Shown here one piece after another: positions 19,375-63,000 of a stretch of DNA of 64,000 nt. The notes under the pieces are model-generated. The model saw only the letters and a program-made list of their open reading frames with translations, did no database searches and had not been told where the DNA came from. The translations under genes and the position numbers were made by a program. The first letter of the stretch is position 1. Each line of letters starts with the position of its first letter. The stretch is from an uncultured bacterium (GTDB lineage Bacteria > Omnitrophota > Omnitrophia > Omnitrophales > Aquincolibacteriaceae). Where the stretch lies: positions 19,832-83,831 of the forward strand of contig CAYZYT010000009.1 of the NCBI GenBank assembly GCA_964482725.1, written 5' to 3'.

Positions 19375-19427
19375 ACTTTCCGGCATGACGCCCAAGTCTT
19401 TATTTTATATTCATCCATGGCGACTTG

Positions 19428-19477
19428 GGCAGTCCCAATACTTATCAATTTCAGCGAAGCAGAAATTGGGGCAGTCC
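19428..19477 (+). repeat. Dispersed copy of 12-bp-stem hairpin family (GGCAGTCCCAAT-N25-ATTGGGGCAGTCC)
   Basis: Same arms and loop start (ACTTATCAAT) as the tandem triple at 44808..45029. Confidence 0.6.
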
Positions 19478-19551
19478 AAACTGCCGTTTTGGAAAAGAAA
19501 TGAAAAGTTTGGACAGCCATGCTCAATCGTCTATTTTTACAAAAGAGGATT

Positions 19552-26424: not shown

Positions 26425-26500
<76 letters not shown>

Positions 26501-26522
26501 ATTCTCAATGAATGGGTGCCAC

Positions 26523-43071: not shown

Positions 43072-44584
43072 AAAAAAGGATGGAGGATGGAGGATGGAGG
43101 ATGGCGTCGAGCGGAAAGCCAAAACGCCCTCCGCCCTCCGCCCTCCGTCCCCCGAACCGCTGAAATTGCTTCGTCCTTTCGTGGAAAGAATGCCGCTCAC
43201 TTCCGGCATCTACCTCATGAAAGACGCCCGGGGAACGATCCTCTACATCGGCAAGGCGAAATCTCTCCGGAAAAGAGTGCGGTCATATTTTAAGATTCCT
43301 GCCCCGATCCCCAAGATCACGATCCTGATGGGAAAAGTGAGGGCGATCGACCACATCGATACCCCGACGGAAGTTGATGCGCTGCTTCTTGAAGCTCATC
43401 TGATCCGCAAGCACCAGCCCCGCTACAATCAGGATCTGAAAGATGATAAGAGCTTTCCGCTTTTTAAGATCACACGCGAGAAATTCCCGAAGCTTTCGGT
43501 CACGCGACAAAAAGGGGACGGCAAGGCGGATTATTACGGTCCCTATACGGACGCGAAACTTTTGCGACAGGCCTTGAATTTGATACAGGCGCTTTTTCCG
43601 ATCAGAAAATGCCAAGCGTTGCCTAAAACGGCATGCCTCTATCATCATATTGGACAGTGCCTTGCCCCGTGTATCAAGCCGGAAGTGAAACCGGAATACG
43701 ACCGCCTGATCCATGAGGTGAAGCGTTTCCTGGGAGGTGGCAAAAAAAGTTTTGTGCAGTATCTCAATGACAGAATGGAGCGGGCGAGCCAGGCGTTGCA
43801 ATTTGAGGACGCGCAATTTTTTAAGGAACAGATCGACGCGCTTTCCAAGCTCCGGAAAAAGCGTTTTCTTCCCAAAAATCCGGGGCAAGGGATTTCTCTT
43901 TCGGCGACGATCGAGCTCAAGCAACGACTCAAGCTGGAGAGGATCCCTGAACGTATCGTTTGTTTCGATGTCTCGAATGTGCAGGGCGATCAGGCGGTTG
44001 CTTCCAAGGTGAGTTTTTACCGGGAGCTGCCCGACAAGTTCGGGTACCGCCGCTACAAGATCCGGGGAGTTTCCGGGATCAACGACTATGCCATGATCGC
44101 CGAAGCTTTGACGCGTATGCTTTGCGGTATCAAGGAAGGCCGGGAAGAATTTATACCGGATCTTATTATGATCGATGGCGGGAGAGGGCATCTCAATACT
44201 GCGGCCAGGGTCCTCGCCCGGGAGGGGATGACCTCGATCGATATTGTTTCCATCGCCAAACAGTTCGAGTGGATCCATTCTCCGAAGTTCCTGGGGCCGC
44301 TTGTCCTGGCCTCGGATTCACCCGCGCTTTATCTCCTAAAAAAAGTGCGGGATGAGGCCCACCGGTTCGCCATCACCTATCACAGGAAGCTCAAGTCAAA
44401 GGCCCTGCAGCGATCGGCCCTAGATGATATCCCGGGGATTGGCGGGAAGCTTAAACGTATCTTGCTCGGTCATTTTAATTCCGTCGAGGAGATCCGGAGC
44501 GCCAGCATGGAAAAGCTTCGTGCCGCTCCGGGTATTGATCCGAAAACGGCTAAGGCGGTTCATACCTACTTTTCACCTCGTTAG
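43061..44584 (+). CDS. uvrC: Excinuclease ABC subunit C (UvrC), short form; start overlaps murJ stop; 5' end contains heptamer repeats
   Basis: GIY-YIG: SGIYLMKDARGTILYIGKAKSLRKRVRSYF; Cys cluster CQALPKTACLYHHIGQCLAPC; C-terminal HhH. Confidence 0.8.
   Translation: MVRKKKDGGWRMEDGVERKAKTPSALRPPSPEPLKLLRPFVERMPLTSGIYLMKDARGTILYIGKAKSLRKRVRSYFKIPAPIPKITILMGKVRAIDHIDTPTEVDALLLEAHLIRKHQPRYNQDLKDDKSFPLFKITREKFPKLSVTRQKGDGKADYYGPYTDAKLLRQALNLIQALFPIRKCQALPKTACLYHHIGQCLAPCIKPEVKPEYDRLIHEVKRFLGGGKKSFVQYLNDRMERASQALQFEDAQFFKEQIDALSKLRKKRFLPKNPGQGISLSATIELKQRLKLERIPERIVCFDVSNVQGDQAVASKVSFYRELPDKFGYRRYKIRGVSGINDYAMIAEALTRMLCGIKEGREEFIPDLIMIDGGRGHLNTAARVLAREGMTSIDIVSIAKQFEWIHSPKFLGPLVLASDSPALYLLKKVRDEAHRFAITYHRKLKSKALQRSALDDIPGIGGKLKRILLGHFNSVEEIRSASMEKLRAAPGIDPKTAKAVHTYFSPR
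43077..43152 (+). repeat. Heptamer-tandem element: (GGATGGA)x3.5 - spacer - (GCCCTCC)x3
   Basis: Seen directly; in-frame at uvrC 5' end (encodes KDGGWRMEDG...PSALRPPSPEP). Confidence 0.7.
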
Positions 44585-44807
44585 TCTCTTGTTTTAAGTT
44601 GTCTGTCGAGAATAAATCGCTGCATTGGCGCTATGCGCTGCTATGAATCGATAGTTGCATTTTAGGCGATTTATAACATTTTAAGCCGCCTCAAGGTCCG
44701 ATTTCCTGCCGAAATAAAATCGTTAAATTTCACAAAAAAAGAGGCTGTGCCCTTGCGGATGTCCGATTATGTGTTATCTTTTCATAAGACTTTAGAAATC
44801 AAAGAAT

Positions 44808-45029
44808 GGCCGTTCCAATACTCATCAATCCCAGCTTCCGAAAAGATGAAATTGGGGCGGCCATAACGACCATTGTTGTAAAAAAATAGCACGTTAAGGC
44901 CGTCCCAATACCATGCAATCGAAGCGTAGCTGAGATTGGGGCGGTCTTGACTACCGTTCAGTAAAATAAATCTGAAGTCAAGGCCGTCCCGATACATATC
45001 GATTTCACGGAGTTGAAATCGGGGCGGTC
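44808..45029 (+). repeat. Tandem array of three ~50-nt hairpin units (GGCCGTyCCrAT-N24-31-ATyGGGGCGGyC) with ~35-nt palindromic spacers
   Basis: 12-bp stems perfect only when G.U pairs allowed (plus-strand RNA); copy 3 carries compensatory CCCGAT/ATCGGG. Confidence 0.7.
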
Positions 45030-45074
45030 GTAATTACCATTAGTTAAAAGAAATAAAAATTACGGCCGAGGCAA

Positions 45075-48000
45075 ATGATCCAAAAAACATCTGCACACAA
45101 GACGCTCATTCCACGCTTTTTCCTCAAGGCGATCAGTCTGTTTACGGTAGTCGTTTTCCTCGGAACTTCCTTTCCGTCCCAGACTCTAGCGCAGATGCCT
45201 TCTACTTCCAATGTTACGGGAGGGATTGACGCCAGTCTTCTTGCCTCGGCCTCCGCCACAAGCGGAAAAGTGCAGGAGATCGTCATCCCTTCCGAACTTG
45301 GAACGATAAGCGAAGCTTATCGCGGGGAACGGGGAACGATGAACGTGGAACGTGGGGCCGAAAACGTTAGCCGTTCCCCGTTAGCCGTTCCCCGGCACGG
45401 CCGTATGGTCGTGCTGATCCAAGACGCTCACGCGGTTCCCGATGCCCAGAGGTCCGTTGAAAAACTGATCGAACATCTCCAGAAAGAATACGGCGTCACG
45501 ACCGTAGCGGTGGAAGGCGCGGAAGGGAAGCTGGACCCCACGCTTTTCCGCCTGTTTCCTGATGCGGAAAAAAGAAAAAGCATTTTTGAAGATTATCTTG
45601 CGAGCGGAGAACTTTCCGGCGCGGCGGCGGCAAGCGTGCTTTCGCCTTACACGGCGGACTATGTCGGGATGGAAGACTGGACGCTTTATCAGGACGGGGT
45701 AGCGGCGTTTCTGGCCGGCCTTGGAAAGCAGGTCGATCTCAAATCTCACATCTCAACTCTCAAATCGGAGCTGCAAAGGCTTAAAACAAAATACTATTCA
45801 GAGGAGGCGCTGGCATTTGATGCCAAACTGGGCGCATGGAATGAAAAACAGAATAATTTGACGGAGCTTTTGAGCTATCTTGCTAAGTTCGTCGAGGTCA
45901 ACGCGCAACGCACAACGCTCAACGTATTATTTGAGGCGTTGGCGCAAGAGAGGAAGGCTGCCCCGAAGCTTGAATCGGAAGTAAAACAGCTTGCCAAGTA
46001 TGTCCACGAGACTGCGCCGAGTGCGAAACTGAACGGACTGGTCCAGGATTACCGGACCGGGCGCTTATCCCTCGCGGCTTTTGCGTATGAGCTTACCGAA
46101 CTCATCTCTGGCAACAAGTCCGTCATTCTGAGCCCGAAGGGCGAAGAATCTCAAAAAAGAGATCCTTCGGTTTTGCCTCAGGATGACGTGAAGATTGTTG
46201 TTTCGGCTGAACTCCGATCGATCATCCAAAACCACGAAAAACTCGTTCAGATGAAAGGGCCTGCATTTATCAAAGAGCTGGAGGCTTTCGTGGAAGACGT
46301 CCGGGCAAAACTTCATACGACACCGGAAGCGAAGGCGGTTGCCGTGCTGGCCAAGCAGTTGCAGCTGCTGGAGAAGCTCTCAACGTTTGAATTGTCGCGG
46401 AGCGAATGGGAAGAACTACGAGCGGGGAACGGGGAACGGGGAACGTGGAACGGGGATGAAAGTATCGATATCTCCCAAAAAAGGATCCTCGATCTTTATC
46501 ACGCACCGCTTGTGGCCGATTTTCTTTCTTTTTATGAAATAGCAATTAAACGCGAAGCCGTTTTTAAGGAGAAGCTTTTTGACCTGTTAGGCGTTAACGT
46601 TTCCCGTTTCCCGTTACCCGCTCCCTACGCCACAAATTCTGTCGCATTTGTGGCGGGCGGCTTCCATACAGGCGGCCTCGCGGCGAAACTCAAGGAACAG
46701 GATATTCCCTATGTCGTCATCTCGCCGGCGATGAAAGAAGTGCCGCAGGACAATCGCTACTTTGAACATATGCAGGGCAAGGTGTCGTGGCGTTCTTACT
46801 TTAAACCGCATAGCGGACGGATTGATCTATTTGATGCCTTTAACCGTGCTACGACAGAAAAACTTTTAGGGGGTAGGGGACAGGGGATAGGCGATAGAAA
46901 ACTAAACCCTAAACCCTATACGCTATACGCTAAGGAATGGCGCGATTCGATCATCCGCAATCTTGCCGCCTCCGGCCGTGTTGCGGAACATGCAAAATAC
47001 ACACATTTCATTGACGAGCAAGCCGCCGGAAATTCCGAAGAGTTTCAGGGGCTCAAACAAACCTGGACCGCGAAACTTGAGCGATTCATCGAAAAACTGC
47101 AGTTCCTTGGTAAGAACAATCAGATCAACGAAGCGAATGTGGCGAAGTTGCTTTCTCAGCCAGCCAACCAGACGCCTTATGCGGTTCCCCTGGTTCCGGG
47201 TGCGACCATTCCCGAAAGCTTTTCAGGAGGTGAACGTGCAACCCACAGGGGCTGGACAGAAAGCGTTCTGACGGACAACGCGCAGCGAGAAATACGAAAA
47301 CCTGAAGCGTTGACCCCTGACCGTAAAACGTTGCCTGCGGCCCAAGGCCGACGTTCCGAGGTGAGAATCTCAGGGGCGAGTCGAGCTGGGGAGAATCTCG
47401 CCCATGATGTGCGTCCGCAAGTTTCGATTGTCATTGAAACGACGCTCAGGGATGAGGTTTTTTTGAACCAACTCGAGAAATATTTTTCCTCGGAGAAGAG
47501 TTCGGAGATCAACAAACAAGTGATCATCGCCGTCGACGGGCGCAGTCAAGCGCTTCAACGCGAACGTTTTGAAAAGCTCAAACGACTGATCAGAGGATTT
47601 GATCCCGAGAAATCAGTTTCCCATGTCCAGTTCGTGCTCGTTCCCGGAACGGGGGCCGTGGGACAGGGGATCCGGAACGGGATTGCCGTTTCGACCGGGG
47701 ACGTCGTTGTTTTGGCAGATGATCGCGCGCCGCTAGACGACGAGATCTATCTTGCTTTGGCGTCACCCGTTCTTCAGAAAAAATCAGAGGCAGTCTATGA
47801 TGCGTCCGGTCTTTACTCGGCGATCAAAACGCGGACGATGAAAGAAGTGCGGTGGAGCAAACGCGGGCCTTTCAGAGACGCAGAGATCAAAGCCAAATTT
47901 GAGCGTCTTGCTTATAAAGCTCAAGTATCTTCCGTTTTATCGTCCGAAGAGCAGGCGCGTATTTCTGCTCGCCCAGGTGTCTCAATTTTCGAGCGCGTTC

Positions 48001-51000
48001 GTGGTGTGCTGGTCCAGGCCTTTTACTCTTTTATCCCCCCTCGGAGTTTCTACTACGGCCAATACGAATTTGAGAAGTCCATGGAAGCCATGGCGAGATT
48101 GCCGCGTCTTGCTGAAGGCGAGAAACGAAAAGTGAGCGTTGTTATTTCTTCGCGGAGCGGAAAACGTTTTTTTTCACCCAACGAGGAAGACGAAGGTCAG
48201 GATGCCTTGCGGGTTAAAGTAGAACAATTGCAGACACTCTTTGCGCTGAATGCTTCCTATGAATGGGAGCTTGTGATCGTTGATGATGCGAGCCCGGGCG
48301 GAAAAACGGGTGAGCGGATCGCTCAAAAAGCCAAGGAACTTTTTCCGGAGTTTTTCCGGTCCGGTAAGATCCGCATTATTTTTTCGAAGGATAAAAAAAG
48401 CCAGAAAGGCGGCGGCATCCTTTTTGGAATGAAGGATGCTCTGAGTCGCAGCGCGGATTATCTGGTTTATACCGATGTCGACCTTTCGGCGGATCTAAGG
48501 CTCATCGGGTCGCTTTTGGAGCCGATCGTTTCCACCGGCGTCGGGATCACGATCGGTTCTCGCGGGCATCCGCGTACCCGGATCATCGGTAAGGGTTCTT
48601 TCCGGAATATCTCAAGCGTCATTTATAATTCTCTGGCGCGTTTTATCCTTCCTATCGGAAAGATCCGAGATACGCAGGCCGGTTTCAAGGCTTTTAGCCG
48701 CGAGACAGCATTGGCGATCGTTCCCGAAGCAAAAGATGTCGGGTTTTCATTCGACACGGATCTTTTGCTCTTGGCGATGGAAAAAGGTTACAAGGTCGAA
48801 GAAATACCCGTTTATTGGAAAGACAGTCAAGTCGGCACTTCCGTGTCCGTCTATTTGTGGGCGCTTCACATGACGACGGGTCTTCTCGAGCAGCGCATTC
48901 GCATGTCCGAACGTGTCTTGGCGCGCCCCGGCATCCAGCCTCGTGCAGTGTTATCGATTCTGGTGTCCCGTGCTGCCATCATGGCGATCCGTGGTATCCA
49001 GAGCTTTATTCGAGCTTACCGACGCGTGAAATCTCTTATACCGGATCGGCCGTCTTTTAAGGCCGTGCCTGTCCCCGGGGCATTCGAGCTCCATGAAGCG
49101 GTGCTCGACAAGCGAACGACTCAGGAATTCTCAGAGAAGGCTCGTGTGATCGTAAGCCAGGCGGGCAAGAATCTTGCCGGTTTCCGAGAACGGATTGCGA
49201 GCATGGACGTGAAAACAAAAACAGAACAAGGACTCGGGAATCGCACCCCTGTGACCGAGGCCGACGAGGCTTTGCAACGATTTATCGTCTCAGAAATTCA
49301 GAGGGTTTTCCCGGGACATTTTGTTATCGCGGAGGAAAAAATCGAGGATGAGATCCTCCGTAAAAATAGGGAAAACGAAAACTCGGACTATGTCTGGATC
49401 CTTGATCCGATCGACGGGACCAAAGAATTCCTCAATCCCGGAAGTGATTATTATGGGATTTCCCTGGCACTCTACTACAAAGGGTTGCCGGTGCTTGCCG
49501 TCGTTCACTCCCCGCATTTTGGGATGATCGAGACCTCCTCAGAGCGTAGCGGCGTTTATCTGAACGGAGAGCCGGTGCGTGTCCGCCAAGAATCTTCGAT
49601 ACGGGACCGTCATGTGGTGATTGACGATGCTCCGCAGAAAATACTCGGTTCCATTCTTGCCGTGGGGAAGGGATGGAAATCCGTTTCTCACAACACCCGT
49701 TCCGTGGTGTTGAATCTGGTGGGGATGGCCGCTTCAGGCCAAGACGCGATGGCGCCGGATCTTTTTTGGAAAGGCGGTGATCGCGGGCCTTTGCTTTGGG
49801 ATATTGCCGCGGCAAGTTATCTTCTCAAAAAAGCGGGGGGGATTGCGTTCAGCGTTGAACAAGGGAGGGTCGTTGAAGTCGAACAAGCGATCCGTGAGAC
49901 GATCCTTGATCCGGCCCAACGAGGCAGGCATTTTTCTGTTTTGGCGGGCACGCCGGAGGCCGTCCTCGCAGCGGCGAATGCTTTGCAGAGGAACCTTGGC
50001 GGAGGTATGTCCCAGAGCACGAAATCTCAGGATCTTGTCGTCGAACGGGTGACCGCGGATCAAAAAATCAGCGCGGTGCACTTCCACTACGATTTTGAAA
50101 TACCCGGAAACCAGATCGCTTTTCCGATCGGTCATGCGGTAAAACCGCAGGCCCCGGTGCTCCTGCAATTCAAGGAAGGATCTTTTGTTTTTAAAAAAGT
50201 CAGCGATTCTCGTTCGCGCGCCCAATACGTGGTGTCTTATCAGAAGGCATTAAAGCAAAGCGGCCTTCTTTCGGTGCCTGGGCTTATCCCGCTCAAGGGA
50301 CGGGCGGGGCAAGCTGCGGATGATTTCCTGGTCGAGCTTTCGGACGGTTATTACGCGCTCGAGGAAGCGCTTCTCCAGGGCTTGGAGATCTCCTATGCGA
50401 AAGCCAATCTAAAACAATTTGAGGATCTTGGCGCGTTGATCGCGGTATTCCATAATACTTCCGAGGGTTTTGAGCTGGAGGGGAAGAAGAGTGAAAATCC
50501 TCTCATCGCGATCGTTGATCGGCAGAAGGATTTTGAAACGTTGGGGATCGCGCTCCGAATTAAAGAACTCATGAAGGGGACGGCGCATCTTGCCCGGGGT
50601 GAGAAACTCTTCCTTAAGAACTATCCGATGCTCATCTCCCAACTCGAGATTCTGCGAGCCCATCTTCCGGGCTCCCGATACGACGCACTTCCGAAGGCGT
50701 TCGTGCCAGCGGATTTGAGCCTCCACAATATGCGGTTTTCCGGGGATGGGAGTTCCGCGCTTTCAGTCTACGATTTTGGCAAGCTGCGCTATCAACCGCG
50801 TCTTGAGGACCTGAAAAATCCAGCCATGTCCCTCGGGCCTGAGAAGGGAAGGACTTATAATCTGGATGTTTTAAATGCGATTGTTCGGGGATACCAGTCG
50901 GCGGCGCGCGAGCCTCTCACGGCAGAGGAGCTTGAGGCCTTGCCGGAATTTATCCGCGGAACTTTTCTCTGGCAATATGCGGGATGGTTTTTTCTTGAGA

Positions 51001-54000
51001 TGGCCAAGCTGAATACCGACGATGCGGTCTACGATCAAGCCGTGGATCTTTTTCAGTATTTCGGTCGGGTTGCGCATGATTTTCCGGCGGGTCCTCCGTC
51101 TCCTTCTTCAGCCGAAGGCCGCCGTTCCGAGTTGCGGAAGGGCGAGGATGTTCTTCTCCCGGAAGTTTCGGCGGAAGGGAAGTCTGAAATTGAAAAATAT
51201 CTTTCCGGAAAAACGCTCATTCATTCTGTTTTTGAAGGGGGCGGGGCGAAAGGGGTGGCCTATGTCGGCGCTTTGGAAGAGCTGGAATCGCAAAACATGT
51301 GGTTTAAGGAAGTGGCCGGCACCTCGGCCGGGGCGATCACGGCGGCTTTGATCGCGGCCGGGTATACGTATCCCGAGATCAAAAAGATCGTTTTTGAATC
51401 CGACTTCAACCAGTTCAAGGACTTGCGGTGGGGGATCGTTCCGCCTTGGCTCAATCTCATGGTCTTTGGGGGCTTGTACCGCGGCCTCGCGTTTGAAAAA
51501 TGGATCGCCGAAAAACTGAAGGACAAGCTCGGCTTTGAGCCGGTGTTCAAGGACCTTCCCATTCCGCTTTCGGTCGTCTCGAGCGATATTTCCAACAAAG
51601 ACATGCTGATCCTCGATAAAGATACGGCGCCCGACCTCAAGGTCGCGGAAGCCGTGCGTATGTCGATGGGCATTCCGTTTTTCTTTGAAGTTTACCGCTG
51701 GCTTGGGGCTTATAAGCGCTTTCCGCTTGCGGTGCGTCGCATGGTCGACGGGGGGCTCCTAAGCAATTTCCCGCTTTTTATTTATGACGAGGCGGGAAGC
51801 AAGGGGGAACCGGTCGTCGGTTTCATGCTTCAGGAAATTCCGCACAAGAAAGAAGCCTCAAAAGGCTGGATTAGCAAGCTGCTGGCTCTCCTGAAATATC
51901 TTCCGGCGTTTCACATAGCCTCGGCTGTGATCGAAACGGCGCTCCAGGGTCAGGACAACCGTCATATTGAAGATGATGTGTGGGCCAAGATCGTCAATAT
52001 TCCGGTCGATGTTGGGACTTTGGATTTCGATCTGACGCTTGCGCAAAAAGAAGAATTGGCGGCACGCGGCAAGGAAGCCACCCGGAAGATCCTCGGACTT
52101 GCGCTTCGCGGTGAAAAAGGGAAAGATTCTGAAGTTTCGGTTGCTTCAATTCGATCCGAAGTAAGGGGAAAGAGTGCTCCGGATGCGATCACCGGCCGTC
52201 GGATCCCTGTTTCCAAGCAGCTGCTCCTTCCGGATTGGGCGCGGGGTTTTATTGATGCCCGTCAGGGAAATCAATACAGAACGCCAGACGAGCGCATGGC
52301 CGTGGCCGTGGAGTTGTCACGGCTGAATGTCGAGAACCATACCGGGGGACCTTTCGGGGCCGCGATCTTTGAGCGCGAAAGCGGGCGTCTCTTTGCCATC
52401 GGCGTCAACCGCGTGGTGCCTCAAAACAACTCGATGGCTCATGCCGAAATGATGGCATTCGTGATGGCACAGGCCCGCCTGAGAAAATTCACTCTCGACA
52501 GGCCGGGGCCGGGACTTGAACTCGTCACCAGCGCACAACCTTGCGCCATGTGTTTCGGAGCGACGCCGTGGTCGGGGGTCAAGAGCGTTGTGATTGGCGC
52601 GCGTGGGGAAGATGTGGAAAGCATCACGGGTTTTGATGAAGGTCCAATCCATCCGGAGTGGCAGAAGGAACTTGAAAGCCGCGGGATCTCGGTTCAACGC
52701 GATGTATTGCGTGATGAAGCGATCGCGGAACTGCGCAGCTATGTCGAACAGAACGGCGTGGTCTATAACGGCCGCTTATCGGCGGCTGAATCAGTGGATG
52801 ATAAACAGGAAGTGAAGTCTGATGCCTCTGTCCGATCGGCATTGGAACCCAATCCCACAGGGACTTCACAAAACGCCGTGTTCCAAACGCTTCGGCAGGA
52901 ACATGCGGACGGTAGGGATTCTCAAGAATCCCACAGACCGTACTTGGCGGAAGGACCGACAAGTAATGGTTCTGTCCGATCCGAAATCCGGAAAATGTGG
53001 GTCAAGGTCGCCGTGGCAGTCGCGGCGGGTGGACTGCTCGTAAGCGGGGCTTTTTTGCTCGACTCTTTTTTGAAGACCTTTCTGACGATCCTTTTTGTCG
53101 TGAATCCGATCGGTTCGGCCGTCACATTTGTTTCGATGACCGGGGAAATGAAGGATGCGGGGAAGCGGGAAAGCCTTTCCAAAAAGTCGCTTATTGCCGC
53201 CACAGCGGTTGGGGCGTTATTCCTTTTTTCCGGCAACCTCCTTTTTGATTTTATGGGGATCACGCTCGGAACCTTTATGATCGCCGGCGGGGCGCTTCTT
53301 TTCACGATTTCCCTCACTTCTTTGACAGCTTCGACGAGCGACAAAAGGGTCGATCCAAACGAGATGGGAGTCGTTCCTCTGGGTATCCCGCTTATCGTCG
53401 GTCCTGCGACGCTTACGACTTTAATGATCCTCCGGGGCCAATACGGCTGGCCGGTCGTGATCGCCGCTTTCCTTGCGAACATGTTCCTGACGGCCATGCT
53501 TTTCCGTTATTCCGGGAAAGTAATCGCTGTGCTCGGGAAGGAAGGCGCCAAGGTCATCGGCAAGATCTTTAATCTGCTTCTTGCGGCGCTCGGCGTCACC
53601 TTGATCGTGAAGGGCCTTTTGACGGTTTTTCCTGGCCTTCATTCCGATACCGTGCGCCCTTTAAGTCTTCCGAAGGACAAGCCGGTCATTGAATCCTCAT
53701 CGCAACCAGGGGCGAATATCCGTTTTGAGCATGCCCGCTTCGATCTGCTGGCAAAGCAGTCTGGATCCGTTCCGCCATCTCGTTCGGAGGTTAGAGAAAA
53801 TACTTCCGCTGACTTTCAGGAGCTGTCCATTCACAAAGGGAAGCAGGTCTCGGAGATTTTGCGTGCGATGGGCCGGCTCGATCATACCAAGGTCTGGGGA
53901 GTGACAAGCCGCGGCGTTCTGCAGATCAGCTGGGGGGACTGGATCGAGCATGAAATGAACAATGCCATGCAGCTTCTTCTTTCCGGCATGGATCTTTATC

Positions 54001-57000
54001 TTCTGGGATGGGGAAAGGACAATCTAGTCACAGCCCGGGAAGGCTGGGACAAAGCGGAAGATTTTTTGATGATCCACAAGGCGTGGCGGGAGGCGGTTCG
54101 AAATAATTTTTCGGAAGTGATTCCGAAGGTTCATTCCCCCGTGGCCGGAAGCTCCCGGGAGCTGGCTTTGGATCGAATCGAGCAGCCCTACTATTTTATG
54201 CGCACGGTTTTTATCGACAGTCCGGACGCCGAAAATAACCGGGAACTCTACATCAGATTTGTGGATCGCCTGGAAAATGTCTTGATGTGGTTTGGAGGAC
54301 AGGTTGCCCAGGAAGTAGACAAGTACGAAAAGGCGAATGGCCCGCTTTCTCCTAAGGGAGCCGAATTATTTTCCGATTCCAGGAAGGGCCGTTCCGAAGT
54401 GCGGGATGATAAGCCGTTAGCTTCAAAAACAGTCAGGCTTCAGATTCCTAAGGGCATATTCAAAAGTATGGCGCAGCAGCCGGCAGGCGAACCTTCCAGA
54501 CCGGATACCGCGGTTGCTGGACCCGGTCCGGAACAGGCAGAAAAATCCCTCAAGAAAAGGGCTGTAAAGTCCACGCCGCTTATCGAGAGTCTCCGCGGGT
54601 ATTACTCAGCGAGAGAGAAAATGCTCAAGGCGATCAAGCAGGGAGACAGCCTGGTTTATGAAGAAAACCTCTTCGCCATGGCGAAATTTTCCCGGGAGAC
54701 GGTAAGCCTGGACAAAAAGAAATCCGCGATCGAGGATGCCGTCGAAGAACTCAGGACGTCGGGGGAAGAATCTTTTAAAACCGAGCTGATCGGCGACGGC
54801 CTGGAGATCACGCGCGTCCTTTCCGATGAATTTTCTTCCGTCGAAAAAGAACAACTGAGTCAGGCTTACGGTGAGTTTCTGCAGGCGCTCGGCTACGATG
54901 CCGTGAATCGTGAGACGCTTGTCCGCGAACTGATGCTGATCACGTATCCGCTGACGTTGATGGACCTCATGCCGAAGAGTATCAAGGATTTCCAGACGAA
55001 GCCGCGCGCCCTCATGGATGTTTTTCAGGCATTTGAGTCCGTCGCCTTCGCCGAAGGGCGCGGGGCTCTCGGGGCTTTGATCGGCGGCGACGTTCTGGAC
55101 CATGACCTTGGCATCCATTTGATCAAGCAGGACGACGAAGTCCTGCTCCGATCTGTCGCGCTGCATGAAGTGACCCATTATCTCGCCCGGAAGAATCTCC
55201 TACCTTTCGATGTTTCAAGCGAGATCATCACGCAGGCTGTGACGATGGTCATTCTCTTTCACGGTATGCCCTACAAAAAAGCCGTGACCGCTTTCGAAGG
55301 CTTCGGCAGTCTCTCAAAGGAGATCGTGGAGCAGGCTAAGGAGGATGTCCGGAAGAAAAGACGCCTCATGGAGCCTGAAGAACTGATGGACTGGGTCCAC
55401 AAAATGATCGTGCTTCATAAGCCGGAGCTCTTGCACGCGCCTCAGGACGCTTTCCGGGACATGCAGGAAAGATTCGCCGGCATGTATTTGGGGGCGTACG
55501 GCTTTTTTGTGACCGAGAATAAATCAGAAAGCGATTCGCTCCGGTACGTGATCCATTACGGTTCGAAAAATTTGCCGAAGGTGAATCACGCGGACTATTC
55601 AAGGAAGCTGTCTTCCAGGGATTGGGAATACATCCATAAAGTGCTGGCTCGCCTCCAGGCGATCGCCGAGGTCATTTTGCAGGAGGACGGGATCAAGTTT
55701 ACCGCGCGTCTCAAGAAAGATATGCGGAATATGGCGGGGGTGCGGTGGTACTACAATCAGGAAGAACACACCTTCTATTATGTGCCCTGGGATATTCTGG
55801 AATACGGGGAAGAAGGCTCGGAGGGGATGCTTCTCACGGAGCTTTTCCGGCAGATGTATTCCCGCATGGAATTTATTGAGGGCGACTACGACACTCCGGA
55901 GTTCCGTCTCCTTTACGGTCTCCTGGATACCCACCGGGTGGTCGGGGAAGGGATCAAGGAATTCTCGGGCCGCGAAGAGGCTGTTAAGAAATTCTTCGAA
56001 AAAAAGATCAGGATCCTCAACCTCGAAACGGAAAAAGAGCGGATGGCGCAAAACCCGCTTTTTGTCCAGTTCTCGGAAGGTGTCTTCTATTATCTCGCGA
56101 CTGATTTTGCTGAATCCTCCGCGAAGAACGATCCCCGCATTACGAACGCAAAGGTCCTTTATGCCCTAACGGAATCTTATCCCGCTATTTTGCAGGCCAC
56201 CGCTCTGAAGGATGAGAAATTCTATCAATGGATCCGCGACGAGATCTGGCCGCATGTGAAGCCGCTGATCGATGAGGATCTCAAAAAACTGTTCGATGAA
56301 ATGATGGAAGATGAAATGCTTCGCCAGCTTCTCGAAGAGCAGATGAAAGAAGGCGGTGAAATGCCGGATATGCCGGGGATGCCGGGCATGCCCGGGATGG
56401 GACAGGGCAGGGGCGAGGGAAATACCCAGGCCGGAGATCTTGATCCCGAGATGAAGGCTAAGCTCCAGAAGATGCTGAAAGAAAAACTTGCCTCGATGAC
56501 CCCCGCCGAACGGGAAGCTTTCCTCAAGAAGGTCAAAGAAGCTTATCAAAAACAGCTCCGCAAACAGACCGATCAAATGTCGGATGTGACGGGACAGACG
56601 CCGAGCTCAATGCAACCCGGCGTCGGCCAGCCGTCGCCTGAGCAGGTCAAGGCCGGTCTTTCCCAGGTCGCGAACGCGCTTCGCGGTCTGGCGGATCAGG
56701 TGGAAGGTATCAAGGGCAATGCCGGAGAGATCAGCTCTTCTGCCGGCCAGGCGTCCCAGGGCGCTGCCGGTGTTTCAGAACAGGCGGATACTTTGAGCGC
56801 GAAGCCCGAGGAAATGTCGAAGGGAGCTATGCAGCCCATGGATCAATCTTTGGGCGGTTTGATGGACAAGATCAAGGCCCTGCGGGAAAAAACTTTCGAG
56901 TTCAACCGCAAGGCCCGTGAGATCGACGATCAGGCCAATGCTTTCGGAAACATCGGGGATGCGGTCCAGGATCAAATGAAACAGCTCCTGGACCATGCCG

Positions 57001-60000
57001 ATGACCTTGCTTCTCTCTCTGCGGATGTTCATCAAACGTCGGCCGAGGCGGACCAGGAAGGCCGTGAGGCCGGTGAAATTGCCGGAGAATTGAAAGCCAG
57101 GCTTGAAGGAGAGAACCCGAGGATCGACGGCCTCAAGGGCCGGGCGCAGCAGATCCAGGCTAAAATGGAAAAGATCGATAAGTCCCTCGAGGACATGGTG
57201 AAGGAACTGCAGGAAGCCCGGCGCCATGCGGACGGTCTTCAAAGCAGTGTCAATCAGGTGGCCCGTCGCGTGGAATCTCCGATGCCGCAGATTTCGGCGG
57301 AGGGTGGGTCGACCGCGGGATCAACAGGTTCCGGGGATCCCGGTGCTCATGGCGCGGCGCCGAGCGATAATCGCGAGAGAGCCATGAATGCCAGGGCCGG
57401 CAGCAGGAGCTCCACGGGGATCGAACGGCATCATTCCGTGGATAGCGCGATCGCGGAGCAGATGAAGCGGTTGCTAGCAGAGCCCGAATATCAGGTCGAT
57501 CCGGAAACCATGCGTCTTCCTGCGAAAACCGTCATTCCTCGGATCACGAACAGTCAGTCGGCGGTCTACCAGGCGATCCGCAAGCCCTCGATCCAGTTCG
57601 AGGCGACGCTGCGGAGCAATATTTTGAATGTACTTCACGAACTTGAAACGAGCCTGCTCCTTGCGAACCAGCGGAAGGGACGCATCAACCCGCGGGCCCT
57701 GACCCGGGTGAACACCGGCGATCAGCGGATCTTCCAGCTCAAAAAAATCCCTGACATCAAAAAAATGAGGCTCACGCTTCTGATCGACGTGAGCGGCAGC
57801 ATGTACTCGGACGGCGGCAATCTGGATCTTGATGCTTTCAATCCAGGAGCGCTTGTCGGGAGTAACAGGATCAACAGCGCCATCCGGACCGCGGTTATGT
57901 TTATGGAAGCCTTCGGCAACGATGAGGATATCGAACTTGAGATCATTCTTGTGGCAGACAATGCCCGGATTGAAAAGCCCTTTGACCAGCCGGTGACCCC
58001 TGAGTTTGCTTATCAAGTCGTTTCCAGGATCCTGCATCACAACCTGGGAGGCGGAAATGCCGATCTGAAAGGGCTTAAGCTCGCGGTCGAAAGCCAGGAC
58101 CTTCGGGAAAAAGAAGCCGGCGTTCAACCCAAGATCATTGTGATAGTTGCGGACGGAGGCATCAACTATACGGATAAAGAGGGGATTGAAAAAACCCTCA
58201 CGACTCGCAAAGACATTGCCTGGCTGCCCACGGGAATCGGTCCCGCGTCCGCGGACGTCAAAAATGCCTATGCCCCTTACGGAGAGGTCGTCGATAGCGT
58301 CAATCAGCTCCCTGAAAAGATCGGAGAAAGATTACAGACACAGATCGAGGCGATCGTGGCGGGCGTCACAGGACGCAGTGAGTTGCGGGATCCGCAGCGT
58401 TTCGAGAACTTCAGCGCGTCCATGGTCGAAGCTTCGCGCAATCTTATGAAAGACGGATTTGACTACGTCACGGAGGACGGGAAAACCTACCTCGTTGTTT
58501 CGCCGGAGACGGACGGAAGCCAAAAATATCCTGATTTCAAGGTGCCGGTGCGGGATGGCGTGAGCAATCTGCGCAAGGAGTCCTTTTATGCGTCGCCTAC
58601 CAATATCCGCGATATCACGAAGATCATTTTGAGAGCGCATGATCAGTCGCTTGACCGCACCGCGCTCAACGTCCAGGGAGACGCCGGATCGGGTAAAAAT
58701 AAGAAGATCTATCACGCGGCCCGTCTCATCGGACAGAATGTCCGCTTCATGGCGCTCCATGATGACATCCACGAAGATGACCTTGTGGAGCGGCGGGGGG
58801 TGAACGAACGCTCCGACGGGAAAACCGACTGGATCCCTTCGGCAATTGTTGAAGCCATGTTGAAAGGGGAATGGGTGATCCTCGACGAATACAACAAAGC
58901 GAAGCCGGAAGTGCTCGCCCGCCTCAATCAGATCATTCAGTCCCGCACCGTGACTTTGCATGACGGAACCAAGGTCAAGGCCAAAGAAGGCTTTGCCATC
59001 ATCCTGACCAGTAATCCTCCGAGCGGTTCGGGCGACGCTGCGGTTTATTCGGTCGCGGCGACCTCCGGCGAGATGCTCGACCGTATTCGTACGATCAATA
59101 TTGAATATTTACCGGCGCAGGAAGAACAAGCGCTTCTGTTTTGGACGCTCATGAAAGAGCGCAAGCTTTCGAACACCGACAAGATCAGCCGGGAAGAGCG
59201 GGAATTGATCCTTCAGCTGGTTTCGGCCGCAAATATCAACCGTACCATTTATAACGGGCAGAATGAGTCGGGCCAGAAAGGCACCGGGCGCGGCAGGAAC
59301 ATCGCGCGGCCGCTGTCGACCCGTTCTCTGGTCAATATCCTCAAGCATATCGCGGAGTTTCCCGGTGAGATCCACCGTATGAAATCGGTGATCAAGCGTT
59401 TTTACTCCTACGAGTGGGAAAAACAGGATCAGATCCTGCGCGTCGAAGAGATCTTCAACCACTTCGCCAGTTTAAATCGGGATATGCCGCTCCTGTTTAA
59501 CGAGGAAGATCTCAAAGGACCTGTTTACGGGACGAATGCCCGGGGGAAGCGCGTTCTAAAGTTTAAAGGCCTCGAAGTGCCGGTGAGCGACGATGCTCCG
59601 CAAAGTCTTGAGGAGATACCGCTTGAAGACCGCGTGATGTGGACGCCCACCAATCTCCGGTATCTCTATGATTGCCTCATGGATTTCAAAAAAGGAAGGC
59701 ACATGCTTTTCATCGGCGAGGCCGGAACGGGGAAAGACGTGATCGCGGAATACGTTTCGTGGCTCCTTTACGGTCCGAAAGTCGAGACCTTCGGCGTGAC
59801 GCGCAATGCCATGGTGGAGGATCTGATCGCTTACCTCGGGCTCGGGGAAGGCGAAAGGATGGACAAAGGCGGCATGGTGATCGCGGCCGGGAAGAACGAA
59901 ACGGGGCTTGTGCCGGCGTATGTGATCCGCGCGATGAAAGCAGGCCGTCCGGTCATTCTGGACGAGATCAACAAAGGGAAACCGGAAGTTTTTGCGGTCA

Positions 60001-63000
60001 TGAACAACATTCTCGAAGAAGGCTGGATCGATCTGGCCAACGGGCAGAGGATCTATTCAGAACCCGGATTTTTGATCATTGCGACCATGAACCCCGACAG
60101 CAAACGGACGTATATCGGCAACTATCGCCTGTCGGGAGAATTCATTGACCGGTTTTCCGCTCATAAATTCGATTATCTGAACCGGGAGGAGGAGATCCGT
60201 ATCCTCCGGGATTTTAACCAATACATCCGCAAGTCATCGCCCGATGCTTACAAGAATTTCAGATCTTTGAGAACGGAATTCATTGGGGCGCTCGTAGCCA
60301 TGACAAGCGTTCTAAGGCAGAAATACCAGTCTCAGGAAATCCCGCATCCTGTTTCGATGCGGTCGCTTAAAAAACTGATCGTGACCTTATCCCGGACGCC
60401 GCGGGAGTATTTTGACGCATTTCCCGCCTTGCTTCGCGAGACCTATGTGTTTGAAGACCCCGTTCATAATGAGGCCGTTCTTGCCGCCGCGGTCCAGGCC
60501 GGGTTGCTGCAGCGGCAGCGCGATCTGTACGTTCCCGCGATGGAAGAGATCATCGCCGTGGATATCGCAACAGGCGATGCGGCTCTGGACAACCTCCTTG
60601 TGGATTTGCGTGATAACGGGATCGATGCCCCGAATGTGATACGGATCTTGTCAGCGCTGGACCGGTTCTTGCACGTGCAGATGAAAGATCTGAATGAGAA
60701 TCAAATCCTCGAATTTAAAACCGTTTTTCAGGCGCTGTACGATTTCCGCGTAGCTCGCAAAGGAGTTGCCTGCGTTCAACTGGCCGGGCAAATTCAAAAG
60801 CGCCTGGCCGGCACCCAGACATTCGAGGGCTATGTCCCGGAACTTACAGGCGAGATCCCGATGACCGGTCACTGGGATTTTTCGTCTTCCGTTCATCCCG
60901 AGATCGCCATGTATGCCCAGACGGTCACGGGCATCCTGACCGAAAAGCGGGCGCGATCGAAAGAGCCTTTCTTTTTTACCCGTATTAACGGCCGCAATTT
61001 TCTCGTGGTCCCCGAAGGCACGAAATTCAGCGATATCGAAGAGGTGCTGCGCGTGGAAGGTGTGGAGATGTACGGGGAGCAAGTGCTCGGAAGTCCCGAA
61101 GCGGGTATCCGTCTTCAAAGCGCCTATCAGCTGATGAAGTATCTTCGTGGTTTGAATGTCGGCAAAGAGGCGGTTTTGCCAGACGTCGATCCCAAGGGAA
61201 TCCTCCGCATCGGGGAAACTGAATGGAAGACCATCGCCGAACTCGGCTTGACCCCGGCCTGGGCGCGGAATATGGCGGTCTTTCTTTCCACCGAGCCGAT
61301 CGATGCCATTCTGAAGGAATCTGCATTCCGAGCGGCCGGCCGGGAGCTTATGGCTGCGAATTTTGACGAGCAAAACCGCAAGATCCTCACGACGGTATTG
61401 AAGCTTCAGAACATTAAACCGTTTGATGCCGCGAAGCTGAAGGAACCTCTCATCAAGGGTAAGGCGGATTCCTCGGAGCTTCTGGAAGCCATCAGTTTGA
61501 TGGGGGAATTCAACGACGGCTACCTCGCTGAACTCAAGAGTCTGATCTGGGCTGACGGCGCACCCCTTGTTTATTGGGCGGAGGATGTCCGGGAAGATAT
61601 CGGCCTTGTGACCGAGGTGATCAATGGACGGCAGTTCTCCTACCTTGTGCTGTCTGCCGGATTAAAGGCCAAGATGGACGATTTTGTTTCGGGCATGCTG
61701 AAGCGGAAGGAAAGGACCGCTATCACGGGTTTTCTTTACCTGCTTCTGGTCGATCTCATGACTGACGATGCTTCCCGCGGCGATGCGGATCACGCGTCGG
61801 AGTTTACGGTTGAGGGCAAGATCAAAGGATTTTTTAACCGCGCCTTGGCCTATTACCGTCTGAAGTCAAAGGCCCCCGCGGAATTTGAGGACTGGTTAAA
61901 GATCTACGGCCGCCCGGATTATCAGGCATGGTCTGAGTTTGTCCAAAAATTCACGGAAGAAACCTATATGAGCGATGAGGCGATCAGCGAAGCGGTCCGG
62001 GCTCTTTTCCCGGAGCATACCGACCAGGCGAATCTCGTGGCGGCGCTCGGAAGCCTGCTCCGGGGCTATGGCACATCTGTGTTCAGCGAGTTGAGCCAGG
62101 TCCGCACCCAGCTTGCCTGGACCCGCAACCAGCTTGAAACGGGGCGTTTAACCCGTCCGGGGCCTGAGATCAAACTGCCCGAGGAGTCGGGTCTTGAGCT
62201 GGAATTTTTGAAAATGGTGAACAAGCGCAACACCAATTTTGAGGCCCCTCATGTGATCTCTTACCGGGTCGGAGAAGACGTTTACGCCGCGTCGATCTCC
62301 CGGTCCGGGCAGGGCGGACTGTTCCAGTTCATGCGCCAGGGGAACGGTGCTTACAAAGTCACAGAGATGAATAATGATCACGAGATGATGACTTTCCTGC
62401 GCGGCATTTTTAAACGGGATAAAACAGGATTTCTTGGATCTTATACTCTCGCGGGGAAAACCCGTTTTCTCACGAAGGATCACACCGTTCCGCGTGAATA
62501 TGAGATCGATGAAACCGGCAAGATCCGTGAACTTGAAACGCGGGAGTCTTTGCTGCTTCAGGCCCTCCTTAAAAACCATCCGCCCAAAGAAGAAGAGAGT
62601 AAAAAAGGGGGTGTTTGGGAGAAAAGTATTAAGTGGCTGCGCTCCGTCGGAAAAAATAATCAGCCGATCAATCTTTTCTTGGCCTATCCGCTCGGGGAAT
62701 CGCTACGGTTGGTGAGCTTGGGACAGGACGGGAAGGCCTTCGAATATGAGTATAACGCGAAGGGAGCCTTCCGCGAGCTGGATGCCTCGGAGCCGGGGTT
62801 TGCCGACGTGCTGCGGACCGAACATGGCCGGCAGGTGAACGGTTTGGCGGATGTCTTTAGTTTTATGCTTGGAGACGAGGTGCGTTTTCAAGTGACGGGG
62901 TTTATGGGAAGCAATGTCCAACAGTATCGTCTGGATAAGGATTGGAACCTGGCGCCAGTCGCTGCGGACAAAAATGCTTTGACGGGTCTCATCGTCAACG

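Follow-up and report, generated by a model that had tools for sequence, protein, structure and literature searches.

The sequence analysed here (the window) is a stretch of 64,000 nucleotides (nt) from an uncultured member of the Omnitrophota (contig CAYZYT010000009.1). Between uvrC and a giant gene designated giant gene 2, whose ATG lies at 45075, it carries three tandem units spanning positions 44808 to 45069, and one more unit lies at 19428 to 19519, in front of mnmA; all four are on the plus strand. The arms GGCCGTTCCAAT/ATTGGGGCGGCC occupy 44808-44819/44851-44862 and are repeated at 44898-44909/44935-44946 and 44982-44993/45018-45029. A preliminary description made from the sequence of the window had listed these three units and a fourth at 19428-19477, and all of the coordinates were confirmed. 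The array is very probably a cluster of independent copies of a small nonautonomous mobile palindromic repeat family that pervades Omnitrophota genomes rather than a dedicated regulatory RNA. Comparisons with relatives show presence/absence of the elements at leuS, mnmA, the 5′ region of the giant gene, tRNA-Leu, and tRNA-Ala.

Units of the family are 82 to 94 nt long, most commonly 84 nt, and fold as two adjacent hairpins. In hairpin I, the helix P1 (GUCC/GGGC) contains a U.G that does not vary; it is joined by a conserved bulge of 9 nt (AAUACYUAU) and by P2, a covarying helix of 10 base pairs (bp) with the form CAAUnnnnnn/nnnnnnAUUG. Hairpin II (P3) has a covarying stem of 8 to 11 bp and a conserved A-rich loop, ACCAUU..GAAAAGAAA. 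The unit ends read yrG|TCCCAAT on the 5′ side and GGAyrG on the 3′ side. Two covariance models were used, one built on the P1/P2/P3 structure (R1) and one restricted to P3 (R2). The array was resolved into the following features.

44808 to 44812, plus strand: the pentanucleotide GGCCG directly 5′ of unit 1; it also terminates each of the three units and reads as a target-like direct repeat.
44813 to 44902, plus strand: unit 1, 90 nt; R1 match at 44806-44895 (37.7 bits, E 1e-8), R2 match of 41.5 bits; P1, bulge AAUACUCAU, long-loop P2 CAAUCCCAGC...GAUGAAAUUG, and P3 GGCCAUAACG/CGUUAAGGCC.
44903 to 44986, plus strand: unit 2, 84 nt; R1 match at 44896-44989 (80.8 bits, E 6e-21), R2 match of 43.3 bits; P1 pairs 44902-44905 with 44939-44942, P2 pairs 44916-44925 with 44929-44938, and P3 pairs 44943-44952 (GGUCUUGACU) with 44976-44985 (AGUCAAGGCC).
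44987 to 45068, plus strand: unit 3, 82 nt; R1 match at 44991-45069 (41 bits), R2 match of 44 bits; P3 GGUCGUAAUU/AAUUACGGCC.

The last base of unit 3 overlaps the GAGG ribosome-binding site of the giant gene (45068-45071). The core descriptor GTCCCRATAC-N15-40-ATYGGGGC had three matches in the window versus 0.00 expected from 100 shuffles. The independent Logan assembly of run SRR12261223 was 100% identical over 541 nt across the array, and the array is therefore no assembly artefact.

A descriptor search for further copies, as proposed in the preliminary description, found the family well beyond the window. A degenerate pattern scan over one genome per species returned at least 120 stretches, mostly chance matches with random gap lengths; about 35 among the matches listed share a core of 40 to 41 nt, GTCCCAATACyTATCAAT-n-ATTGGGGC. 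True matches, again among those listed, were found in at least 15 assemblies, 12 of them labelled Candidatus Omnitrophota or Omnitrophica and 3 labelled "uncultured bacterium," and the family is also present on many metagenome contigs. The covariance model gave 38 strong matches in the family loci, and its combination with a metagenome scan yielded 35 strong copies outside the training set. The pattern had 38 matches in viral contigs, none of which passed the covariance model; this doubles as a negative control and gives no evidence of carriage by phages. The family comprises single, tandem, and inverted units and half-units as well as copies nested in one another's loops. Isolated and tandem P3 modules were also seen, as were units nested in the P2 loop of another unit, at five loci of relatives (L073, L096, L052, L047, and L064).

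The assigned structure is supported by covariation. Pairing in 28 aligned units was 92.8% for the P1/P2/P3 structure versus 27 to 52% in slid-partner controls, with changes on both sides in six P2 pairs and seven P3 pairs. For 41 distinct metagenome matches, none of them in training, 93.7% was paired and 20 of 22 pairs had changed on both sides. The spacers of the array, earlier described as palindromic, are indeed so; each is the second hairpin, P3, and is supported by this covariation. The 12-bp stem of the preliminary description has its arms as described, but its inner 8 bp are invariant over the 28 units and hence uninformative, and its outer 4 bp are only partly paired. This stem and P2 compete for the same AUUG and are mutually exclusive. 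Unit 3 has AUCG in place of the AUUG, and the two possible partners, CCCAAU and AUCAAU, have changed to CGAU. The compensation earlier proposed for this unit is thus present, but it is triple (CCCGAT, ATCGAT, and ATCGGG) rather than double and fits the 12-bp stem and P2 alike. Among 73 units, the usual state (A, A, U) was found in 63 and the fully compensated state in unit 3 only; this is modest evidence that both competing pairings matter.

The minimum-energy fold of the tandem array uses long inter-unit hairpins, in each of which P3 is combined with a 3′ arm and the 5′ arm that comes next. Relative to shuffles, the fold was −101.6 kcal/mol (z −7.5) on the plus strand and −95.8 kcal/mol (z −5.7) on the minus strand. 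The earlier argument that the stems form only as plus-strand RNA was weakened by these values and by a strand-specific wobble test, in which the variable stems of the family had 15 G.T versus 12 A.C cells and no asymmetry. Strand specificity depends mainly on the single invariant T.G in P1. These data also bear on the suggestion that the array is a set of small-RNA genes, with each unit transcribed separately. While the units are discrete, structured, and about 85 nt long, with one weak promoter-like match inside unit 3, a promoter scan of the array found that match against 0.9 expected by chance, and no terminators were found. Moreover, folding of the minus strand is almost as good, nested units and half-units are frequent, and some copies lie in frame within coding sequence. 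Separate small-RNA genes were therefore considered extremely improbable.

The two exclusive pairings sharing AUUG could be taken for a switch, in which the 12-bp stem alternates with P2 in a dedicated cis-regulatory leader RNA (a riboswitch, thermosensor, or protein-binding attenuator) of giant gene 2 and mnmA. Such a leader would suit the joint change of all three partner positions in unit 3, the high conservation of the bulge and loops, the z score of −7.5, and the location of the array between a conserved upstream block and the ribosome-binding site. However, Rfam at gathering score found only three tRNAs in the whole window and no family matching the array; a search around the array at E ≤ 10 added nothing beyond miRNA-like chance matches below threshold, and the scan of the array found neither a terminator nor an expression platform. 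Further data came from relatives, whose element-bearing or orthologous loci are given L numbers and whose LeuRS proteins are given P numbers.

In L123, L124, and L125, where UvrC is 81 to 86% identical, the genes follow one another as in the window (holA, rpsT, murJ, uvrC, giant gene). The orthologous site holds 0 units in L123, 1 degenerate unit in L124, 1 unit in L125, and 3 units in the window, and all four loci end in GGCC|GAGGCAAATG. When aligned with the relatives, units 2 and 3 form a 168-nt block inserted after ...AAGGCCG and ending ...ACGGCCG. The P3 stems of the three window units are unrelated in sequence, and the units therefore did not result from recent tandem duplication. The P3 half of unit 3 is nearly identical to the single L125 unit, which has the look of a recombinant with the 5′ half of unit 1 and the 3′ half of unit 3. 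The variable unit number at this site, together with the lack of the mnmA copy in a close syntenic relative, has largely refuted the leader RNA, and the same element was found beside unrelated genes, in either orientation, and inside open reading frames (ORFs) and tRNA genes. The fixed sense orientation, coherent gene set, and conserved orthologous sites of riboswitches and leader RNAs were not observed. A dedicated leader was accordingly judged very unlikely, and neither the structured 5′ leader nor the small-RNA array of the preliminary description is supported. The upstream block was placed as follows.

44753 to 44800, plus strand: conserved block TTGCGGA...TATGTGTTAYCTTTTCATAAGA, upstream of the insertion point and present in all four orthologous loci in the alignment; a possible giant-gene promoter, that is, context rather than repeat.

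A sigma-70 consensus scan gave no promoter call at this block. The array is probably transcribed as part of the 5′ untranslated region (UTR) of the giant gene, where it lies because of its landing place. We infer that the mobile repeats ride in the 5′ UTR between the block and the ribosome-binding site and that any effects on expression are secondary.

The insertion at mnmA comprises the following features.

19385 to 19551, plus strand: composite insertion of 167 nt, separating the ancestral mnmA ATG (19385) from the present one (19552).
19389 to 19433, minus strand: inverted P3 module with stem GCCCAAGTC/GACTTGGGC in the DNA fold; R2 match of 27.1 bits (E 4e-5).

The loop of the inverted module fits the P3 loop consensus on the minus strand. 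The module is followed by a full unit (19426-19519; R1 match of 98.7 bits) and a T-rich tail with a new GAGG (19545-19548), and ATGAC(G) is found on both sides of the composite. The empty site is preserved in L122, which is syntenic with the window (deacetylase, mnmA, and, further on, leuS; MnmA 82% identical): the deacetylase stop and the mnmA ATG are 9 nt apart there, with no element between them. The ancestral ATG now opens an upstream ORF (uORF) of 56 codons that runs through the element, and its TGA overlaps the new ATG as ATGA, an arrangement that suggests translational coupling. The same composite of about 170 nt is present upstream of a response regulator gene in L013 and of ptsH in L081, with 83% column identity among the three. 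Each composite begins right after ATG(A/G)C and ends with a Shine-Dalgarno (SD) sequence and ATGA(C/T), the working start codon. The possibility that the L013 and L081 sequences were orthologous mnmA leaders was ruled out by tblastn, which identified the downstream genes as the response regulator gene and ptsH. Since these composites adjoin unrelated genes, their similarity is evidence for a mobile 170-nt composite. The equivalent uORF in L081 ends as TAATG at the ptsH start, and that in L013 stops early. Also in L081, a reverse-orientation unit (1133-1225, plus strand) fills the whole gap from the ptsH stop to the ptsI ATG, and the ribosome-binding site of ptsI must therefore be inside the element.

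The dispersed copy claimed at 19428 is thus real, but it is not the only one in the window: besides the inverted P3 module, a full unit and a degenerate outer unit were found within leuS.

26953 to 27036, plus strand: inner leuS unit, 84 nt; R1 match at 26951-27044 (82.1 bits), outside the training set.
26888 to 27055, plus strand: outer, older leuS insert, 84 nt, consisting of 26888-26952 and 27037-27055 and split by the inner unit.

The inner unit is in frame, encodes 28 residues, is flanked by GATAG...GATAG, and is located in the P3 loop of the older insert. The latter consists of a CCAATT...AATTGG hairpin followed by a P3-like hairpin (GCCCTGGCA/TGCCAGGGC), has the weak model matches of a degenerate unit, and is flanked by CAAGC...CAAGC in L121. 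Relatives differ in which of the two inserts they have. The whole insert of about 56 residues is missing from P0001 and from P0002/L122 (LeuRS 92% identical), and P0003/L121 (LeuRS 91% identical) has the outer 28 residues only and lacks the inner 84 nt. Further in-frame units were found in KdtA (L019, 6961-7054), in the inter-domain linker of this Kdo transferase, whose identity was confirmed by Pfam, and at two positions in an L035 ORF that exceeds 2666 residues (6636-6729 and 7467-7560). The KdtA and L035 copies read VPIPIN..EAEIGAV and the leuS copy reads SPNAIQF..NWG. Two reading frames are thus in use, and no single coding frame is conserved. Such modules of 28 residues may have a share in how the phylum's characteristic giant proteins grow.

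Insertions were also observed in tRNA genes. In L122 (9640-9980) a full unit (81 bits) interrupts a copy of tRNA-Leu(CAA) after GGCGGAACTGGCAG, with GGCAG...GGCAG on its flanks. The one tRNA-Leu that ARAGORN still calls there is the second, intact copy, 130 nt downstream. The interrupted copy also lacks its 3′ end. In L131 the interruption of tRNA-Leu(UAG) (about 1284-1434, minus strand) falls at this D-loop position too, GGCAG|ACGC. Exactly at the 3′ end of tRNA-Ala(GGC) in L122 (9520-9565) sits a hairpin module of 39 nt, CCAATT...AATTGG, flanked by CCGGTCCA; it is missing at the corresponding place in the window (26495-26510). This module is of the same type as the first hairpin of the outer leuS insert.

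Most copies of the family are intergenic and, by crude ORF calling, occur in both orientations relative to neighbouring genes; L118, for example, has two antisense units in gaps of the thrS-infC-rpmI-rplT-pheS operon. In at least 15 species, the bulge and the loops, which are unpaired, have kept nearly the same sequence. Taken with the many copies that abut start codons, this could mean that the repeats have been domesticated, i.e., kept for a host function such as mRNA stabilisation, the supply of ribosome-binding sites and start codons, or protein binding, which would be compatible with a mobile origin. The 170-nt composite does give an SD sequence and an ATG to three genes (mnmA, ptsH, and the response regulator gene), the unit that follows ptsH directly adjoins the ATG of ptsI, and retention of at least part of the giant-gene array goes back beyond the split from L125. 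On the other hand, the sites are dispensable in close relatives, orientation is random relative to genes, the in-frame and tRNA insertions look accidental, and conservation of the loops is equally expected if a transposase must recognise them. Domestication was given a low probability for these reasons, although not as low as that of a leader RNA.

The site rule of the mobile repeats was deduced from the flanks. All six insertions with a known empty site follow a sequence of 5 to 8 nt identical to the 3′ end of the insert itself (GATAG, CAAGC, ATGAC, GGCAG, GGCCG, and CCGGTCCA); the direct repeat is exactly 5 nt in four cases and 6 and 8 nt in the other two. More generally, the trinucleotide before TCCC equals the 3′ terminal trinucleotide in 26/31 and 19/31 units at its two variable positions, versus 14.8 and 10.8 when shuffled, and this was replicated in a second set (21/23 and 18/23 versus 11.7 and 7.7). 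The 3′ terminal bases pair and covary with the segment just after GGGGC, between the hairpins (pairs 55-96 and 56-95). Because this covariation lies within P3, the terminal bases are part of the element and not a duplicated target. This is also an objection to a classical MITE (a miniature transposable element with inverted repeats) mobilised through staggered cutting by a DDE transposase, for which the 5-nt repeats would be true target-site duplications. The four repeats of exactly 5 nt, the presence/absence polymorphism, and the short inverted ends CnGTCC...GGACnG would all suit such an element. Its 3′ repeat copy, however, belongs to the element itself, the inverted ends measure only 6 to 8 nt, and no related insertion sequence (IS) was seen in the loci. 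A DDE-type MITE is consequently unlikely.

It is proposed instead that the element spreads as DNA via a trans-acting enzyme that would recognise the conserved hairpin features. The likeliest enzyme, as a best guess, would be a single-strand HUH/Y1 transposase of the IS200/IS605-RAYT type (RAYT, tyrosine transposase associated with repetitive extragenic palindromic [REP] sequences). The inter-hairpin segment would serve as a guide that selects the target, and the conserved T.G, bulge, and loops would be the features recognised by the protein. As read from the sequences rather than from biochemistry, the target is complementary at 4 or 5 of 5 positions to the inter-hairpin segment in four cases. 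Given mobility, choice of the target by its match to the end of the element, following the "transposon-directed target selection" logic of IS200/IS605 elements and more loosely that of REP/RAYT, is plausible by analogy but somewhat doubtful. More tentatively still, and on balance improbably, the family might be a naturally reprogrammable single-strand DNA transposon remnant, whose 5-nt inter-hairpin guide would pair with both its own 3′ end and the target, with guide variants retargeting the copies. Each sub-lineage would then insert right after a pentanucleotide identical to its own terminus. This proposal fits the sub-lineage ending in SD-ATGAC, which lands exactly on start codons reading ATGAC and restores both ribosome-binding site and start codon to the gene hit (at mnmA, the response regulator gene, and ptsH), and also the GGCAG-ending lineages, which hit the tRNA-Leu D-loop. 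The length of 84 nt (28 codons) would let proteins, including giant ones, absorb copies. Microhomology-mediated copy-choice may be an alternative mechanism of mobility.

Several observations weigh against the interpretation as mobile repeats. The near-invariance of the unpaired sequences also fits an RNA or protein-binding function selected by the host. At least part of the giant-gene array is older than the split from L125 and has hence been long retained, and all of the window copies are on the plus strand, sense to the genes. No orientation bias was found relative to local GC skew (16 positive, 18 negative), although this is a weak test on 8-kb fragments, and it gives no help to a replication-coupled single-strand model. 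In the approximately 0.6 Mb of element-bearing loci searched, which are not whole genomes, a Y1/HUH motif regular expression had no match over 2076 open frames, and tblastn with the Escherichia coli RayT gave no credible match. The genes neighbouring the elements are housekeeping genes, with no IS in the loci, and there are no long terminal inverted repeats, the ends being inverted only over the 6 to 8 nt of CnGTCC...GGACnG. Two candidate transposase ORFs were rejected: a weak RayT match antisense inside giant gene 2 proved to be an ORF without a Pfam match, and the L104 ORF beside a half-unit encodes a membrane protein for which neither a Pfam match nor relatives in the loci were found.

The family behaves like REP elements and bacterial interspersed mosaic elements (BIMEs), Rickettsia palindromic elements (RPEs), and MITEs but departs from each in its defining features. 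The REP/BIME elements of Enterobacteria and Pseudomonas are moved by RAYT tyrosine transposases. The preliminary description had named REP/BIME-like elements among its options, and this one was essentially right: the repeat family of the units is dispersed, and relatives differ in its presence. The two kinds of repeat are alike in being short, dispersed palindromes with a conserved structure, single and clustered, mostly intergenic and within operons; in both the hairpin is kept by compensatory change, and a single-strand hairpin substrate is plausible for both. However, the present unit measures 82 to 94 nt and has two different hairpins, versus an imperfect palindrome of 20 to 40 nt, and the array is head-to-tail rather than alternating. 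The GTAG or CGTC tetranucleotide tag that defines REPs (PMC3733652) was not found in the family alignments. Nor is the family strictly extragenic, as copies occur in leuS, kdtA, a giant ORF, and tRNA-Leu, and the RAYT gene expected in the same genome, typically with REPs on its flanks, had no match in the loci searched.

Insertions of RPEs occur in frame in housekeeping genes that are unrelated to one another, and translation continues through them to give an extra peptide segment (PMC10969869). The present elements resemble them in stop-free in-frame insertion, here in LeuRS, KdtA, and twice in the giant ORF, where 84 nt would be read as 28 codons in the predicted translation. They differ in that RPEs are about 150 bp long with a conserved peptide in one frame per family, whereas two frames are used here and most copies are intergenic; the host phylum is also Omnitrophota rather than that of Rickettsia, and the two are not known to be related in sequence. 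With MITEs and modular repeats (Correia/NEMIS, ERIC, and pneumococcal BOX) the family shares its nonautonomous nature, variable presence, short flanking direct repeats, and the capacity to supply or alter the expression signals of neighbours, and its mosaic, modular architecture resembles the boxA-boxB-boxC arrangement of BOX. Unlike MITEs, it has no terminal inverted repeats of at least about 10 bp matching an autonomous IS but only ends of 6 to 8 nt. In contrast to these repeats as a group, its flanking repeat is part of the terminal helix of the element and its stems covary freely while the loops stay fixed.

A mechanistic parallel exists with IS200/IS605 elements, for which "peel and paste" single-strand transposition was reportedly described by Barabas et al. 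in 2008 and Guynet et al. in 2009, and with their miniature derivatives, the PATEs. The likenesses are subterminal hairpins (I at the 5′ side, II at the 3′ side) instead of terminal inverted repeats, a conserved mismatch in the hairpin, insertion immediately 3′ of a short specific sequence, and, as read from the sequences, a target and right end complementary (4 or 5 of 5) to an internal segment at the foot of the hairpin, which may act as a guide. The differences are that a single inter-hairpin guide would serve both ends, so that the target equals the element's own 3′ end, and that the guide/target pair varies between copies (CGG, CAG, TAG, CTG, and others). Furthermore, no TnpA was found in the approximately 0.6 Mb of loci and no orientation bias with GC skew was seen, both being weak indications from 8-kb fragments. 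Literature searches on Omnitrophota repeats, MITEs, and giant genes gave no description of these elements, and the family is apparently undescribed, a new and structurally unusual family of a known kind of selfish repeat.

In practical terms, these blocks of 82 to 94 nt are liable to be flagged as riboswitch or small-RNA candidates in Omnitrophota, and the covariance model now separates them. In a little-known and mostly uncultured phylum, the elements add segments of 28 residues to LeuRS, KdtA, and giant proteins, split tRNA-Leu genes, replace translation-initiation regions, and create uORFs. If insertion after a copy of the element's own 3′ end, itself paired with the inter-hairpin segment, does reflect the chemistry of transposition, the family would represent a compact natural case in which a guide directs the choice of target and in which a single family holds many variants of that guide.

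The window contains two giant ORFs, at 45-12437 (at least 4130 residues) and 45075-63998 (more than 6300 residues, running off the window). The first 1500 residues of the latter, giant ORF 2, contain glycosyltransferase-2 and inositol-monophosphatase domains, in keeping with descriptions of multi-enzyme giant proteins from Omnitrophota. Many short tandem arrays built from units of 7 nt were noted in its coding sequence at 45320-45395, 45736-45766, 45899-45924, 46423-46456, 46598-46620, and 46867-46933, and a further one at the uvrC start (43077-43147). Heptamer arrays shift the frame unless the copy number changes by three, and they could be another type of in-frame repeat or a phase-variation device. 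In the array at 45320-45395, (GGGAACG)n stands opposite (CGTTCCC)n, giving a long imperfect hairpin in the 5′ part of giant gene 2.

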